Of a DNA stretch of 64,000 nucleotides, positions 1-21,396 are shown piece by piece. Within the stretch, counting starts at the first letter, position 1; each line of letters starts with the position of its first letter. Both the position numbers and the translations under genes were made by a program. This DNA comes from Candidatus Latescibacterota bacterium (GTDB lineage Bacteria; Latescibacterota; UBA2968; UBA8231): the NCBI GenBank assembly GCA_965208105.1, contig OZ242318.1, positions 1,216,001 through 1,280,000 of the forward strand. The letters run 5' to 3'. Under the pieces are notes generated by a model. It was not told the DNA's origin. It saw only the letters and a list, made by a program, of their open reading frames with translations, and ran no database searches.

Positions 1-1631
1 TCGGGCGTGCTCGCCGGACCGAGCTCCTCGACCGCGGTCATGCTGCTCAACCTGCCGGTGAAGATCCCGTGGGGGATATAAATCAGCATCCCGCTGCCCT
101 CACTGGTCCGTTCGGTCGGGGTGGCGATGTCGACACCGGTGGCGGGATACATGCCGTCGTACTTGCCGCTGCCGTCCCCGATCAGGCGGATGTGCTTGAG
201 GGTGCTGCCGTAGTAGTAGGGACCCAGCTCCGGCTCGAAGGTGTGGAAGAACAGACCGGTGCCGTCGCGGCCGAAGGCCCCGAAGTTGTAGCCGATCTGG
301 TTGTGCTGATCGATGGCTATGGACATCTTGCCCGTGGGATGGGCGTCCATGGACACGGTCACCGCGTTGCTGCCAGCGGCGTGCGAGGCGACCCCCAGCT
401 CCTCGGCGGCCTCGGCGGAGAGCCAGTCCTTGATGCCGTCGCCGGTGGTGTTGCACCACTTGACGTTGCCGTCGTGGTCGGTGTGCACGAAGTGGTCGGT
501 GGCGTGGTCGGTCATCCAGATCCCGTTGTCGTTCACCGCGAAGATCGAGATGCCCACTTGAGCGATGCTCTGATTGCCTTCGTCGTCCGTGTCGACGCGA
601 TGGAACCAGTCGAGCATGTCGTTGAACCTGGTCATTTCTCCCGAGGTCTTGTCATAGACTTCGATGCCGATCAAGAGAGGGTCGCCGTTCCTGGTGCCGC
701 TGTAGACGCTGTTCTGGTGCGGAATAACCCACCAGGTGCTGCCGCGGTCGGCGCCCTGGCCCTCGTCGCCGTAGGAGGTGTCGAGATCCAGGGTCTTGGC
801 GGCGTCGTTGCGCTTCAGCTTGAGGATGCCGGTGGTGGTGCCCAGGTTTTCGTTGGCGCTGCTGCGGCTGCTCCATTGCACGCTCGGATCCATGTCGTCC
901 GGGCGGTTGCCGCTTGCGTTGTTCTCCTCCTGGGGATCGAAAGCGGTGATGGTCCACTGCTCGTAGGCGGTGGGATTGGCGACGTAGTCGCGGTCCACGG
1001 TGCCGAAGTAGCAGACGTTGGGCGGCGTTTCCTGGTAGGGCGACCAGGTCTCCGGAGGATCGACGTTGGTGTCCACCGAGTGCTGGCCCCAGGCGCCGGA
1101 GTGGCCGGTGCCCACCAGGTTGGCCTCGAAGTCGTTGAAGGCGATGACGTCGTACTCGTAGTCTCCCGCCCCGGCCGCGCTGCCGTCCCAGGCGGTTCCG
1201 TCCCAGGTCCAGCTGTTGCTGCCGGCCTCGAGGTTCATCACCGGAGAGTGATTGACGTATTGCGGCTGCGGCGCCACCCTGATCCATGCGCCGTGGGGGC
1301 CGGTTTTGCCGGTATGGGTGGAGTTCATGTCGTAGATCACCACGGTGACGCGGGCGCGCTGGTTCAGCTCGAAGGGAATGGCCACCGAGCCCGAGCCGCC
1401 GTAGGCCACGTCGGGGGTGGTCACGACCATGCGGTTGAATACGCCGAGGCCGCTGCGGTCGGGGGCCTTCCAGGTGCCGCCCCCGTCGAGGAACAGGCCG
1501 CCGCGGGACTCCGCGTAGGTTCCCGCCGCTCCCCCTGGCAATCCGTACTGCCCGGTCCAGGTCTCGCCCCAGGCCGAGCCCGCCACCAGAAGCAGGCCGG
1601 CGCTGAGCATACTGGTCAAGATCTTCTGCAT
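1..1631 (-). CDS. Secreted FlgD-Ig-like domain protein, paralogue of 19062-20990; 3' end runs off the window
   Basis: Absent from the ORF track because there is no stop in the window. Manual translation from ATG 1631 (RBS GAGGAG upstream) gives MQKILTSMLSAGLLLVAGSAWG (signal peptide), then GGSGSVAIPF, WTWDGTAWDGSAAGAGDYEYDV, DYVANPTAYEQW, FGRDGTG and GMLIYIPHG..TAVEELGPASTP, colinear with the 642-aa ORF. The C-terminal sorting domain is expected beyond base 1. Confidence 0.9.
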   Translation of the reverse strand, partial: MQKILTSMLSAGLLLVAGSAWGETWTGQYGLPGGAAGTYAESRGGLFLDGGGTWKAPDRSGLGVFNRMVVTTPDVAYGGSGSVAIPFELNQRARVTVVIYDMNSTHTGKTGPHGAWIRVAPQPQYVNHSPVMNLEAGSNSWTWDGTAWDGSAAGAGDYEYDVIAFNDFEANLVGTGHSGAWGQHSVDTNVDPPETWSPYQETPPNVCYFGTVDRDYVANPTAYEQWTITAFDPQEENNASGNRPDDMDPSVQWSSRSSANENLGTTTGILKLKRNDAAKTLDLDTSYGDEGQGADRGSTWWVIPHQNSVYSGTRNGDPLLIGIEVYDKTSGEMTRFNDMLDWFHRVDTDDEGNQSIAQVGISIFAVNDNGIWMTDHATDHFVHTDHDGNVKWCNTTGDGIKDWLSAEAAEELGVASHAAGSNAVTVSMDAHPTGKMSIAIDQHNQIGYNFGAFGRDGTGLFFHTFEPELGPYYYGSTLKHIRLIGDGSGKYDGMYPATGVDIATPTERTSEGSGMLIYIPHGIFTGRLSSMTAVEELGPASTP

Positions 1632-1686
1632 TTCAATTCTCCTCTATGAAATGGATGAACGGAATTGCATCGACAAAGCGCGTCTC

Positions 1687-1730
1687 GACGTCTTCGCGGG
1701 GAACCTCACCTCCTTTGGCGAAAGAACGTC
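1687..1730 (-). promoter_or_regulatory. Leader stem-loop with AAAGGAGGUG in a 20-nt loop (copy 1)
   Basis: Minus strand reads GACGUUCUUUCGC-[CAAAGGAGGUGAGGUUCCCC]-GCGAAGACGUC, about 76 nt upstream of ATG 1631. The same architecture occurs at 21057-21098. Confidence 0.55.
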
Positions 1731-1825
1731 CGATGGGTGTTGGCGGAATTCCTCCATTATAAATAACCTCGTATAAAACAAGGAGTTAATCTCTCAATGA
1801 TGCCTCATTTTGCCGAGGGAAGGTT

Positions 1826-1855
1826 AATATATGAAAATAAGGCGCCGTAAGTCAA
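1826..1855 (-). promoter_or_regulatory. Putative sigma70-type promoter of the 1631 gene
   Basis: Minus strand TTGACT-N18-TATATT in an AT-rich intergenic region. Confidence 0.45.
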
Positions 1856-5161: not shown

Positions 5162-6937
5162 ATGAACCCGACCGGCACATATAGAAGCAGGGGCGCGCGA
5201 CCTTCAGCGCGGCACCTTCGCGGGGTGCTGGTGCTGGGGTTGCTGATCCCTTCCTTCGGCGCACCCGGCGCCGAACCGGCGCCGCGCTTCAACGACCTCA
5301 CCCACCAGGCCGGATTGGCCTTCCGCAACTGGTACGGGGACAGCAACGCCAAGACCATCCTGGAGACCACGGGCTCGGGGGCCGCCTTCTGCGATTTCGA
5401 CGGCGACGGCGACCTCGATCTCTACATCGTCAACGGGGCCGTGGGCTTCGATCACCCGCGCCTGCGCGACCTGCCCCACGACGTCAGGCCCCCCGCAGAC
5501 GGCAGCACCCCGCGCAACGCCCTCTTCCGCAACAATGGCGACGGCACCTTCGAAGACGCCACCGCGGAAGCCGGCGCCGGACACACGGGCTGGGGCGCCG
5601 GCTGCGTCTGCGGCGACTACGACAACGACGGCGACCGCGATCTCTACGTCACCTACTACGGCCCCAACCTCCTCTACCGCAACAACGGGGACGGCACCTT
5701 CGCAGAGGTCGGCGCCGGGGCGGGAGTGGACCACGGAGGTTACGGCCAGTCCGCCGCCTTCGGCGACTACGACGGCGACGGCCACCTCGACCTCTACGTG
5801 ACCAACTACCTGGAATTCGACCCGGGGACCGCCATCCTCCCCGGCGAGCGCCGCGGCGACTTCTTCGGCCACATGCGCGGCATCCCCACCATGGCCGCGC
5901 CTGAAGCCCACGATCCTTCCCCGGACATCCTCTACCGCAACAACGGCGACGGAACCTTCGAGGACGTCAGCGCCGGAGCGGGAATCAACCACCAGCTCGG
6001 CCGCGGCATGGGTGCGGTGTTCTGGGACTACGACGACGACGGCGACCAGGACATCTACGTGGCCAACGACGCCAGCGCCAATCTGCTCTACACCAACAAC
6101 GGCGACGGGACCTTCGAGGAGAACGGGGCCCGCATGGAGGTCGCCTTCGACGCCGACGGCAGCGCCGAGGGCAGCATGGGGCTGGCCTCCGGGGACTTCG
6201 ACAACGACGGACGCCAGGACATGGTGGTGACCAATTTCGAGGTGCAGACAACCACCCTGCACCGCAACGAGGTGAGCTACTTCGCCGATGTTTCCATCGA
6301 ATCCGGGGTCGGACTGTCCACCATTGCTCCCATGCAGTGGGGCGCCATCCTGTTCGACTACGACAACGACGGGGACCAGGACCTCTACCTCGCCAGCGGA
6401 CACCTCACCTCGGCCCTGGAGGACTACTACCCCCAGTCGAGCTTCGCCCAGAAGAACCAGCTCTTTCGCAACACCGGCGGGGGCAGCTTCGAGGAGGTTA
6501 CCAACCGGGCGGGAGACGGGCTCAAGGTCATCAAATCGAGCCGCGGCGTGGCCAGCGGCGACTACGACGGCGACGGGGACGAAGACCTCTTCGTGGTCAA
6601 CAAGAACGATTTCCCCACCCTGCTGCGCAACGACACCGAAAGCTCCAACCACTGGCTCATGCTGCGCACCCGGGGCGCTCGGAGCAACCGCGACGGCGTC
6701 GGCGCCAGGGTGCGGGTGGTCAGCGCCGGCCTGTCCCAGGTCAAGGAGGTCCGCGCCGGCTCCAGCTATCTGTCGCACAACAGCCTGTGGCTGGCCTTCG
6801 GCCTCGGCGCCGAGAGCCATGTGGATACGGTGGAGGTGCGCTGGCCCAGCGGCCTGGTGCAGAGGTTCACCGAGGTGCCGGGGAACCGCTATCTGCTGGT
6901 GGAGGAGGGGGAGGAGCCGGTGGAGGCGGGACCCTGA
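5162..6937 (+). CDS. CRTAC1-like FG-GAP repeat / ASPIC-UnbV protein
   Basis: FG-GAP motifs (GDYDNDGDRDLYV, FGDYDGDGHLDLYV) and C-terminal GSSYLSHN..FGLG..VEVRWPSG. Start placed at ATG 5162, because the TTG at 5090 looks like a TTGACA -35 box. Confidence 0.9.
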   Translation: MNPTGTYRSRGARPSARHLRGVLVLGLLIPSFGAPGAEPAPRFNDLTHQAGLAFRNWYGDSNAKTILETTGSGAAFCDFDGDGDLDLYIVNGAVGFDHPRLRDLPHDVRPPADGSTPRNALFRNNGDGTFEDATAEAGAGHTGWGAGCVCGDYDNDGDRDLYVTYYGPNLLYRNNGDGTFAEVGAGAGVDHGGYGQSAAFGDYDGDGHLDLYVTNYLEFDPGTAILPGERRGDFFGHMRGIPTMAAPEAHDPSPDILYRNNGDGTFEDVSAGAGINHQLGRGMGAVFWDYDDDGDQDIYVANDASANLLYTNNGDGTFEENGARMEVAFDADGSAEGSMGLASGDFDNDGRQDMVVTNFEVQTTTLHRNEVSYFADVSIESGVGLSTIAPMQWGAILFDYDNDGDQDLYLASGHLTSALEDYYPQSSFAQKNQLFRNTGGGSFEEVTNRAGDGLKVIKSSRGVASGDYDGDGDEDLFVVNKNDFPTLLRNDTESSNHWLMLRTRGARSNRDGVGARVRVVSAGLSQVKEVRAGSSYLSHNSLWLAFGLGAESHVDTVEVRWPSGLVQRFTEVPGNRYLLVEEGEEPVEAGP

Positions 6938-19061: not shown

Positions 19062-20990
19062 CTACTTGAGCAGAGTCATTGAATGCGTCGCGGCGAAATC
19101 GCCGGCCTGCATGCGATAGAAGTAGACTCCGCTGGACACCTGCTTGCCGCTGAGGTCCACGGCATCCCAGGTTGTGCGGTAGGAACCCGCGCTCAACTCC
19201 TCGTCCACCAGGCTCACGACCAACTGACCGGCGGTGTTGAAGACCTCGATTTTGACGAAGCCGTCGCTGGGCACGTTGAAATCGATGGTGGTCTCGGGGT
19301 TGAAGGGGTTGGGATAGGCCGCGCCCAGGGCGTAGCTGTCGGGCGTGCCGGCGCCGTCAACTGCCTCGACGACGGTCCCGACGCCCTCGCCCAGCTTGGC
19401 GCTGGCCACGGTGTACGGGGTGTGCAGCAGCATGCCGGGGCCGTACTTGGCCTCCGACGGATAGACGCCGCGGCCGCCTTCATGGTCGATCAGCCTCAGC
19501 CCGCAGGTGCTGTAGAGACCGTCGTAGGCGCCGCCGCCGGGGCCGTTGCCTTCGCCCTCGTAGGTGGCGTTGAACCTGGTGCCGCCGGGACGAAAACGCC
19601 CCCAGGACACCGGGAAGCTGATGGCGAGGATACCGGAGCCGTCGCGGCCGACCACGCCGAAGGTGGTGGGGCCATTGACTCCGACCATGTTGAAGAAGGA
19701 GATATTTCCCCCGGTGCCCGGATCGATGGACGAGCCGGTGATGTTGATCGGGGGACTGGGGACGCCGCCGATCGCGGCCGCGGCCTCGATGCTGAGGCGG
19801 TCTCCGTAGCCGTCGCCATTCTCGTTCACCCAGAGGACCTCGCCGCTGTTGCGGTCCATCCCGACGATGGCCTGATGCCCCCAGGCCGAGGTCAGGATCA
19901 AGTCTCCCTGCACGTCGATCTGGCGCGGACCTCCGGACCTGACGGTCTCGTTGCCGTCGTCGTCGGTGCCGTAGACGTGGTAGAAATCGCCCAGGTCGAA
20001 GGCCTGCATGGTCTCGCCATTGGCCTTGTCCCTGACCTCCACCGCGCTGAAGGGCACTTCCTGGACCCCGTGCAGGGTCTGGTAGAGGACGCCATCCTTG
20101 GGAACCATCTCGAGGATGCGGTCGCCGTTGGTGTTGTGCGAACGGCCGTTGTCAGCCCAATCGGTGACCAGATCCCAGGACTTGGAGGGGCGGTTGATCC
20201 TGAGCTTGTAGATTCCCTGGTCGGGGTCCTTGTACTCGTTGGACCAGAAGACCTCAAGGTCTACGTCGTCCTGCTTGAGGCCGCTGAGGGTTCGCGCCCC
20301 TTCCCAGGGCATGGCGGCGCTGTAGGACCAGCGCTCGAAGGCGGTGGGATTGGCCAGATAGTCCGTGCCTATGGTGGCGCGGATCATGTCGCCGATAGTG
20401 TGGTAATCGGTGGAGCGCTCGTATTCCTGCACGAAGATCTCTACCGGATCCTGGGTGAGGTCGATGTTGGGGCGGGTGAAGCCAGAAGGACCGGTCCCCG
20501 GACCGACCAGGGTCAGGGGATCGAGATTGTTGACCACCACCACGTCGAACTCGTAGGTACCGGCGCCGGCGGCATTGCCATCGAAATCGTTGCCGTCCCA
20601 GGTGATGCTGTTGTCGCCGGCCTCGATCGGCTGCCCGCTGGGGGGCACGGTGGCGACGTAGAGGTCCTGCGCGACATAGCGCTGCCAGGCACCGCCCGGA
20701 CCCCGGTTGCCCGTGGCCGAGTTGCCTGTCTCGTAGATGACTACCCACGCGGTGCCGCGGCTGCTGGAATTGAACGGAATGGTCACCGATCCGCTGCCGT
20801 CCCAGCCCACGTCCTGGGTCGAAGCGCGGATGGGAGTAGGATTACCCGACTTATCGGTGAGGGTGAAGATATTTCTATCCTCGCCGTGGCCGTAATCATA
20901 GCCGGGAACGTAGGTGTCCTCGGCGGTGGCTGCACCGGCAATCATGGCTGCCATGGCCCCGGCCAGGAACGTGAGTTTGAAACTCCTCAT
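19062..20990 (-). CDS. Secreted protein with N-terminal FlgD-Ig-like domain and C-terminal T9SS/FlgD-type sorting domain
   Basis: Signal peptide MRSFKLTFLAGAMAAMIAGAATA, ITWDGNDFDGNAAGAGTYEFDV, and C-terminus AYPNPFNPETTI..WDAVDLSGKQVSSGVYFYRMQAG..MTLLK. Confidence 0.88.
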   Translation of the reverse strand: MRSFKLTFLAGAMAAMIAGAATAEDTYVPGYDYGHGEDRNIFTLTDKSGNPTPIRASTQDVGWDGSGSVTIPFNSSSRGTAWVVIYETGNSATGNRGPGGAWQRYVAQDLYVATVPPSGQPIEAGDNSITWDGNDFDGNAAGAGTYEFDVVVVNNLDPLTLVGPGTGPSGFTRPNIDLTQDPVEIFVQEYERSTDYHTIGDMIRATIGTDYLANPTAFERWSYSAAMPWEGARTLSGLKQDDVDLEVFWSNEYKDPDQGIYKLRINRPSKSWDLVTDWADNGRSHNTNGDRILEMVPKDGVLYQTLHGVQEVPFSAVEVRDKANGETMQAFDLGDFYHVYGTDDDGNETVRSGGPRQIDVQGDLILTSAWGHQAIVGMDRNSGEVLWVNENGDGYGDRLSIEAAAAIGGVPSPPINITGSSIDPGTGGNISFFNMVGVNGPTTFGVVGRDGSGILAISFPVSWGRFRPGGTRFNATYEGEGNGPGGGAYDGLYSTCGLRLIDHEGGRGVYPSEAKYGPGMLLHTPYTVASAKLGEGVGTVVEAVDGAGTPDSYALGAAYPNPFNPETTIDFNVPSDGFVKIEVFNTAGQLVVSLVDEELSAGSYRTTWDAVDLSGKQVSSGVYFYRMQAGDFAATHSMTLLK

Positions 20991-21056
20991 TTTTCTCTCC
21001 TTGGAGTTAAGGTTGAATTGAAAATTGAGTTTGACTTGAAAATTTCATCAGCAAGA

Positions 21057-21098
21057 CAAAATCCCGCCCAGGACCACCTCCTTTCGTGCGGGGCTTTG
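21057..21098 (-). promoter_or_regulatory. Leader stem-loop with AAAGGAGGUG in a 20-nt loop (copy 2)
   Basis: Minus strand reads CAAAGCCCCGC-[ACGAAAGGAGGUGGUCCUGG]-GCGGGAUUUUG, about 85 nt upstream of ATG 20990. Confidence 0.55.
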
Positions 21099-21396
21099 AC
21101 TCAAGGATCGAACCAAGGCGGATTCCGAATTCCTTGAATCCTGTTTATAGCTCAAAATTCCAGACATCGAATGAGCCGATTGAAACTGGTGGAACCTATT
21201 CTAATAATATGAACGCACTGGAATGTCAAGTCTTTTCTCTCACCCCCATTCCCTTTCCCCTCCATTTCCGCACGGCAGCGAACCTTCCCACCAGCGGCCG
21301 CCGCCCTTGACGCGCTGGCGCAACCGCGCCTAGATTAGCCCCTTCCGGGCGGACCGAAGGCGGAGGCGGCCCCAGCTTCACCAGGGAAAAGGAAAA

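Follow-up and report, generated by a model that had tools for sequence, protein, structure and literature searches.

Genes for a family of secreted proteins in a Candidatus Latescibacterota bacterium carry in their 5′ leaders, far upstream of the start codon, an extended Shine-Dalgarno sequence (upstream SD, uSD); this element is a conserved, family-specific leader feature beyond chance. We favor, with modest confidence, a reading in which the uSD would dock 30S subunits without initiation and raise the output of the secreted-protein gene; that 30S subunits bind, and that translation or mRNA half-life is affected, we infer from comparison of sequences. Two copies lie in the window, by which we mean the whole 64,000-nt stretch of DNA that was analyzed (G000:C1:1216001-1280000), part of a one-contig genome of 4.85 Mb (61.6% G+C, 93.9% complete by marker count). 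The feature and both genes that follow it are on the minus strand, a correction to the preliminary description of this DNA:

3..1631, minus strand: gene A, which continues past the window edge (635 aa in the genome)
1637..1645, minus strand: true RBS of gene A, AGAGGAGAA, 5 nt 5′ of the ATG at 1631-1629
1687..1730, minus strand: hairpin around uSD-1 (arms 1730-1718 and 1697-1687, 20-nt loop 1717-1698)
1706..1716, minus strand: uSD of gene A, AAAGGAGGTGA, 11-nt exact complement of the 16S 3′ tail
1826..1855, minus strand: sigma-70-like promoter match TTGACT-18-TATATT in leader A (promoter tool, consensus match only)
19062..20990, minus strand: gene B, 642 aa, with a T9SS type A sorting domain and a FlgD-Ig-like domain
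20995..21002, minus strand: true RBS of gene B, AAGGAGAG, 5′ of the ATG at 20990-20988
21057..21098, minus strand: hairpin around uSD-2 (arms 21098-21088 and 21067-21057, 20-nt loop 21087-21068)
21075..21085, minus strand: uSD of gene B, GAAAGGAGGTG, 11-nt exact complement of the 16S 3′ tail
21201..21229, minus strand: TTGACA box (21229-21224), 17 nt, then TATTAG, in leader B (by eye and with our own script)

Each of the two leaders contains an 11-pair stem with CGC/GCG closure and a 20-nt loop that includes AAAGGAGGUG, read on the minus strand. The stem of leader A is built from a 5′ arm GACGTTCTTTCGC (1730-1718) and a 3′ arm GCGAAGACGTC (1697-1687), which form 11 pairs with two T bulged (own-flank duplex, -14.4 kcal/mol); that of leader B, built from CAAAGCCCCGC (21098-21088) and GCGGGATTTTG (21067-21057), extends over 11 positions including one G-U and one C-A mismatch (-17.3 kcal/mol). 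The distance from the 3′ end of the motif (the end of GGAGG) to the ATG is 77 nt for gene A (ATG 1631) and 86 nt for gene B (ATG 20990), and ATG, GTG, and TTG are absent 4-12 nt 3′ of the uSD in both leaders. RNAfold recovered both outer stems, plus inner GGAG/UUCC and AGGA/UCCU pairings, and placed GGA in the hairpin loop of the window copies. What the preliminary description had said of these two leaders (stems, 20-nt loops, inner pairings, a separate RBS, and no start codon at initiation spacing) was thus borne out by the minus-strand reads and by RNAfold. Folding energies were ordinary relative to shuffled sequences (z = +0.18 and -1.41 for hairpins A and B; +0.43 and +0.01 for the whole leaders), and a MAFFT alignment of the two leaders was uninformative, the uSDs not even being aligned to each other. 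The promoter match in leader A predicts a transcript start ~100 nt 5′ of uSD-1; the promoter-like boxes of leader B were not called by the promoter tool because the second hexamer ends in G. A terminator-like hairpin (1767-1783, minus strand; six pairs, then TTATTTATAA) lies between the predicted promoter and the uSD of leader A, and none was found in the other leaders.

The product of gene A combines a signal peptide with an Ig-like domain, a beta-propeller, and a C-terminal T9SS sorting domain, and an AF2 model of the gene B protein (pLDDT 72) likewise shows an Ig-like domain and a beta-propeller. A fold search with the gene B protein returned generic beta-propeller matches only, and assignment of a function on this basis was rejected. 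By tblastn, A and B belong to a 13-member paralog family of this genome with an Ig-like domain, a beta-propeller, and a T9SS sorting tail, in which no Pfam families were found beyond FlgD-Ig and the T9SS tail. Relatives also have the family, with 22 matches in a genome of the same genus (G001) and 15 and 17 in two genomes of another genus (G008 and G021, respectively). Two of the paralogs, C and C2, form a tandem pair with 92% identity. Conservation of the uSD across the family points to these unannotated surface or secreted proteins as probably important to the bacteria that make them.

The 10-mer motif occurs twice in the window vs 0.15 expected, a count reached in 3 of 100 shuffles, and 18 times in the 4.85-Mb genome; five of the 18 lie 75-117 nt 5′ of paralogous secreted-protein genes of ~625-650 aa. 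The 16S rRNA 3′ end in the same genome is the complement, AGAAAGGAGGTGATCC, and therefore the motif is an exact anti-16S sequence. Nine of the 13 paralog leaders (A, B, C, C2, D, E, G, I, and J) bear a uSD, carrying far-upstream (A/G)AAGGAGGT(G/A); it is absent from F, H, and K, and ambiguous in L. As background we took 3420 genes from our own crude gene caller and searched their intergenic leaders, beyond 30 nt upstream, for matches to the 16S-tail complement. Matches of at least 8 nt were present at 49 genes, nine of them in the family (9/13 vs 40/3407 other genes, Fisher p = 8e-15), and matches of at least 9 nt at 17 genes, again including nine of the family (p = 1e-19); the uSD copies share descent, so these and all other p values given here overstate independence. 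The 40 non-family sites probably include some RBSs that serve small genes missed by the crude caller. The earlier view that the motif is a real, conserved leader feature of the CTD-protein family is upheld by this comparison of paralog leaders with the other genes.

We extended the tally to four genomes, counting exact matches of at least 8 nt located 40-250 nt 5′ of the chosen ATG in near-full-length members only and leaving out two genes broken in two pieces (G001:C1:2331702-2333022 and G008:C1:4106520-4107720). A uSD was present in 9/13 leaders of the window's genome (G000), 10/20 of G001, the same-genus relative, and 5/13 of G008 and 6/17 of G021, from the other genus, giving 30 of 63 leaders in four genomes of two genera. 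These 30 copies are exact 16S-tail matches of 8-13 nt, situated 63-197 nt (median 93) 5′ of the ATG; the 16S 3′ end is identical in G001, G008, and G021, and E. coli has the same anti-SD core. By the criterion of at least 8 nt, 33 of 63 leaders lack a uSD, a number in which three members with starts poorly chosen by the heuristic (G000_L, G021_L046, and G021_L090) are entered as negatives and which includes the near-misses AAGGGAGGTAA (L071), AAGGGGGGTG (L032), and GAAAGGAGT (L082, L091, and L094). In a further genome (contigs CAYNZV...), two of three readable leaders have a uSD. A far uSD is absent from 16 B-like orthologs of other Latescibacterota genomes (L106-L121, ~49-51% identity), whose leaders are shorter. 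With 33/63 leaders and all 16 of these orthologs lacking the element, the family can do without it.

On a tree of 67 members (54 of 73 relative loci plus the 13 own genes), 30 rows are uSD-positive and 37 are not, and at least nine state changes are needed; two deep clades are each uSD-positive in 7/7 members, across three or four genomes. The tree left out L105 (upstream region N-masked), L113 and L114 (near-copies of the 51% group), L140 and L154 (short contigs), L157 (broken gene), and L162-L174 (at most 28% identity or fragments). Same-genus ortholog leaders are 60-83% identical, with the promoter box, the uSD and its stem, and the RBS as conserved islands. Leaders of paralogs, whose proteins are 35-47% identical, cannot be aligned apart from the 9-13-nt exact match. 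In one ortholog pair, gene G of the window's genome (L024) and L044 of G001, the uSD lies 77 nt and 197 nt 5′ of the ATG, respectively, and where L044 has its uSD, the leader of gene G has a decayed copy (GGTGAAAG-CGCAGG). This pair looks like a case of positional turnover and argues for turnover under selection.

These comparisons bear on the possibility that the uSD has no function, being a relic of gene duplication or a by-product of G/A-rich leaders. The paralogs do have common ancestry, and half of the family as well as whole sister genera are without a uSD, which speaks for this possibility. We nevertheless consider this explanation very improbable: an exact match of 9-13 nt is kept in paralog leaders that are otherwise unalignable, the uSD is a conserved island among same-genus orthologs, the different places of the G and L044 copies argue for turnover under selection, and the motif is strongly enriched in the family relative to all other genes (p = 8e-15). 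The uSD thus appears to be kept by purifying selection across a paralog family, in two genera and a further genome of an uncultured phylum.

One relative leader has an unusual composition. Between ~90 and 200 nt upstream of L054 (G021:C4:1312634-1317271) there is a stretch like the 5′ end of a 16S rRNA gene (...AGAGTTTGATCCTGGCTCAG...), after which the last 60 nt are the same as in the G001 counterpart, L053; the 16S-like stretch may be an assembly chimera or the insertion of an rRNA fragment.

To define the conserved sequence, we compiled all 45 GGAGG sites found 40-250 nt upstream in the 63 family leaders, leaving the flanks unselected. The resulting logo, (G)AAA-GGAGG-TG(A), is the 16S-tail complement (-4 G in 28/45; A at -3 to -1 in 30-32/45; +1 T in 31/45; +2 G in 34/45), while true RBSs with GGAGG (n = 28) read AA-GGAGG-AA (-4 G in 1/28; +1 A in 23/28). 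The motif tracks the 16S tail, not GGA or GGAGG alone. Pairing with the 16S tail is predicted at -21.7 ± 2.5 kcal/mol for uSDs (n = 30) vs -9.8 ± 2.1 kcal/mol for true RBSs (n = 63). This extended complementarity confirms the sequence behavior expected from the earlier comparison with the STAB-SD of Bacillus thuringiensis. No other 6- or 7-mers were shared by the leaders beyond shuffles in 16 ortholog groups; a second leader motif noticed by eye in A and B, GGAAT(T)CCGCC, did not exceed shuffles in the same groups and was rejected.

ATG, GTG, or TTG is found 4-12 nt behind the uSD in only 5/30 copies vs a leader background of 0.385 (binomial P = 0.009), i.e., start codons are depleted. The five copies open ORFs of 4, 7, 19, and 23 codons and one ORF in frame with the main gene. 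Although they could be taken to indicate that the uSD serves a small upstream ORF or leader peptide as its normal RBS, we regard this as extremely improbable and rejected it, because 25/30 copies, including both window copies, have no start codon at initiation spacing and the few ORFs differ in length and frame. The earlier statement that no normally spaced start codon follows the motif accordingly holds for most copies in the family.

The hairpin seen in the window copies is less regular elsewhere. Across the family, the 5′ and 3′ flanks of a copy form a duplex of -12.2 kcal/mol on average vs -9.9 (SD 3.8) when flanks of other copies are combined, and the own-flank duplex is -14 kcal/mol or lower in 15/30 copies. 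With one representative for each of 16 ortholog groups, own flanks paired better than foreign ones (permutation p = 0.02 and 0.005), and offset controls placed 40 nt downstream and 60 nt upstream of the motif gave p = 0.55 and 0.91. Stems differ between paralogs, and even between the 87%-identical orthologs B and L031; loop lengths vary from about 19 to 28 nt or more, so that the loop of "exactly 20 nt" reported initially is correct for window copies A and B and does not extend to the family. The preliminary description had also likened the preserved pairing to covariation, for which the signal is weaker than stated: RNAalifold produced no consensus structure (0 pairs) on the 30-copy alignment, and in a clade of seven members (the E clade), where 90.5% of helix cells are paired vs 30-68% when the helix is slid, only one pair has changed on both sides, in two cells. 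The enclosing hairpin is a real tendency, frequent but variable, and not a demonstrated covarying structure. A search of Rfam, which had been suggested as a check, matched no family in the 64-kb window at gathering score, and permissive scans of leaders A and B gave chance matches only (E 4.4-5.7).

Whole-leader folding assigned the uSD a predicted unpaired probability of 0.39 vs a leader mean of 0.43, so the motif is not especially open. Pairing of its 3′ flank with the uSD is slightly weaker than that of random leader windows (p = 0.024), which fits display in a loop. True RBSs have an unpaired probability of 0.43 in leaders with a uSD vs 0.39 in those without (p = 0.23) and are not weaker where a uSD is present (p = 0.20). 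Two helper roles were rejected on these grounds: a standby site forced by an occluded RBS, given the same RBS accessibility with and without a uSD, and compensation for a weak RBS. The true RBSs being neither more occluded nor weaker, there is no evident need for a helper site.

The same data weigh on a cis-acting switch, in which alternative pairings of the uSD or of the hairpin arms would make the true RBS accessible or mask it, in the manner of a thermometer or a riboswitch-like anti-anti-SD. Some elements of such a device can be found, since the 3′ arm CACCTG of the C lineage can pair with either the 5′ arm CAGGT or the uSD sequence AGGTG, and copies A and B have the inner GGA/UCC pairings. 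But own flanks pair with the uSD no more than random leader windows do, and the 3′ flank pairs less; on this result self-sequestration was rejected. The true RBS is equally accessible with or without a uSD, the leaders have no second conserved sequence, and no Rfam family was matched. We therefore judge a switch improbable.

In leaders bound by CsrA/RsmA, GGA is found in an upstream hairpin loop and again in the RBS. The leaders studied here resemble them in holding GGA in a hairpin loop, although the loops are long, and a site for a trans-acting regulator has to be considered: a CsrA-like or other RNA-binding protein, or an sRNA with an anti-SD-like, C-rich loop, would control the paralog family as a regulon, and the likeness to an SD would be a by-product. 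The family specificity of the motif, the GGA in the hairpin loop, and the real hairpin tendency all agree with this. Yet no CsrA gene (PF02599) was found in the one-contig genome, which leaves the CsrA/RsmA precedent invoked earlier without its protein there, and conservation goes far beyond the GGA core: 11-13 nt are kept that match the 16S-tail complement exactly, -4 G and the TGA at +1 to +3 among them, which a GGA-loop binder would not need. We consider regulation in trans unlikely.

We return to docking of the 30S subunit, the reading that we prefer. The uSD, located in the 5′ untranslated leader, usually in a local hairpin loop and ahead of a much weaker own RBS, would be docked by a 30S subunit through SD/anti-SD pairing, and initiation would not follow because there is no start codon behind it. 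The docked subunit could then form a roadblock to 5′-end-dependent decay, which here would involve RNase E/G and two RNase Y enzymes, not RNase J, and it could keep a subunit loaded on the leader near the true RBS. A promoter-like match was found by our own scan in 21/30 uSD leaders, with the predicted start 15-211 nt 5′ of the uSD; these distances, and those of 63-197 nt between uSD and ATG, do not separate a stabilizer from a loader. The original proposal of a candidate cis-regulatory RNA for secreted-protein genes is supported by conservation, family specificity, and complementarity to the 16S tail; that these genes are highly expressed, also part of that proposal, is only hinted at by metatranscriptome contigs. 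A more far-reaching version has the hairpin-displayed "super-SD" as a 30S parking module, which would make the T9SS cargo paralogs one post-transcriptional regulon tied to the free 30S pool, and hence to growth state, with mRNAs shielded from RNase Y or RNase E/G and the element kept by selection with positional turnover. We offer this version as speculative and unlikely; if true, the parking module would be a route of stabilization other than the RNase J1 roadblock of Firmicutes.

The best-known relative of the uSD is the STAB-SD of B. thuringiensis cry3A (Agaisse & Lereclus 1996), which, according to later accounts, adjoins the 5′ end of the processed stable transcript and places a 30S roadblock in front of the 5′-3′ exonuclease RNase J1 (PMC4113751, PMC12970973). 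The STAB-SD, like the uSD, is an SD-like sequence complementary to the 16S 3′ end, stands in the 5′ UTR ~100 nt or more before the start codon, directs no initiation (for the uSD, as predicted from the missing start codons), and precedes the gene of an abundant exported or accumulated protein; the core of the uSD, GAAAGGAGG..., is the same anti-SD-complement stretch. Unlike the STAB-SD, the uSD reaches up to 13 nt, tends to lie in a hairpin loop, and is common to a whole paralog family, and its host belongs to a Gram-negative-type, T9SS-bearing phylum. In the one-contig genome there was no match to RNase J (TIGR00649), with the control positive in 13/14 genomes; the canonical STAB-SD mechanism, a block to RNase J1, therefore cannot apply as such. 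The STAB-SD precedent put forward at first thus holds for the sequence features and not for the RNase J1 block. The RNA decay set of this genome is unusual, with one copy of RNase E/G and two full-length copies of RNase Y (L099, L100, and L101), and neither RNase J nor CsrA found.

The closest functional model is provided by the uSD/uRBS elements that 30S-seq revealed in E. coli, a host that degrades mRNA with RNase E: in that report, 30S occupies the focA -213 site in the absence of initiator tRNA, and expression drops ~10-fold when the site is mutated (bioRxiv 10.1101/2025.04.04.647229). These elements, as presented there, are likewise strong SD-like motifs far upstream (>35 nt) in a long 5′ UTR, with no functional start codon and separate from the true RBS. 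They differ in being experimentally defined in single genes and in that "strong" means 5-7 nt; our evidence is comparative only, the matches span 9-13 nt, and paralogs as well as different genera have kept the element. Bound ribosomes are also reported to obstruct RNase E scanning (PMC9943677). Ribosome standby sites (MS2 coat, tisB) also preload 30S ~100 nt 5′ of the RBS; they are reported to serve RBSs in stable structure and to use single-stranded RNA and protein S1, not an SD (PMC6690012, PMC7708055), unlike the present leaders, where true RBSs are not predicted to be more occluded when a uSD is present. A limited search of the literature on the STAB-SD and on SD-like leader elements with RNase E returned nothing for Latescibacterota or T9SS genes.

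Far-upstream, non-initiating SDs are known from experiments on few genes: cry3A of Bacillus and, in recent work, focA and some others of E. coli. The present element is set apart by its family-wide retention, its complementarity of up to 13 nt, and its tendency to display in a hairpin loop. Retention across paralogs gives evolutionary support, independent of those experiments, to a function of far-upstream SDs, and suggests that such SDs are compatible with mRNA decay by RNase E/G or RNase Y. The ~30 natural uSD variants, with their differing stems, loops, and distances, make a compact set for learning what renders an upstream SD effective.

The uSD-bearing leader is present in contigs from RNA libraries. 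Metatranscriptome contigs from two studies, belonging to a close strain (66 differences in 1817 nt), run from the interior of gene B through the uSD to 21115-21120, beyond which they diverge over 27-46 unlike letters, and one RNA contig spans leader A (1550-1835). Contig depth was 20-89 over gene B through the uSD vs 0-14 over the neighboring 17 kb, a comparison to be read with the fact that the runs were found with gene B itself and that the data are assembled Logan contigs without 5′ ends or strand; uncovered parts of the 20-kb stretch are uninformative. At 5421-6683 of the window, many RNA contigs contain skips of 63-1261 nt between similar places, which suggests an internally repetitive gene or relatives with other repeat numbers.

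Two sites outside the family deserve mention. L012 (G000:C1:3902194, plus strand) has a perfect SD of 12 nt, behind which come a 15-codon ORF and a terminator-like hairpin; the next called gene is 780 nt away. L010 (G000:C1:3447117, minus strand) has an orphan 12-nt AGAAAGGAGGTG, separated from the next gene by 303 nt, and 3′ of this sequence there is a stretch with GGATCACCT, like the 16S tail itself, together with a GC-rich hairpin and a T run; this locus may be a small RNA.
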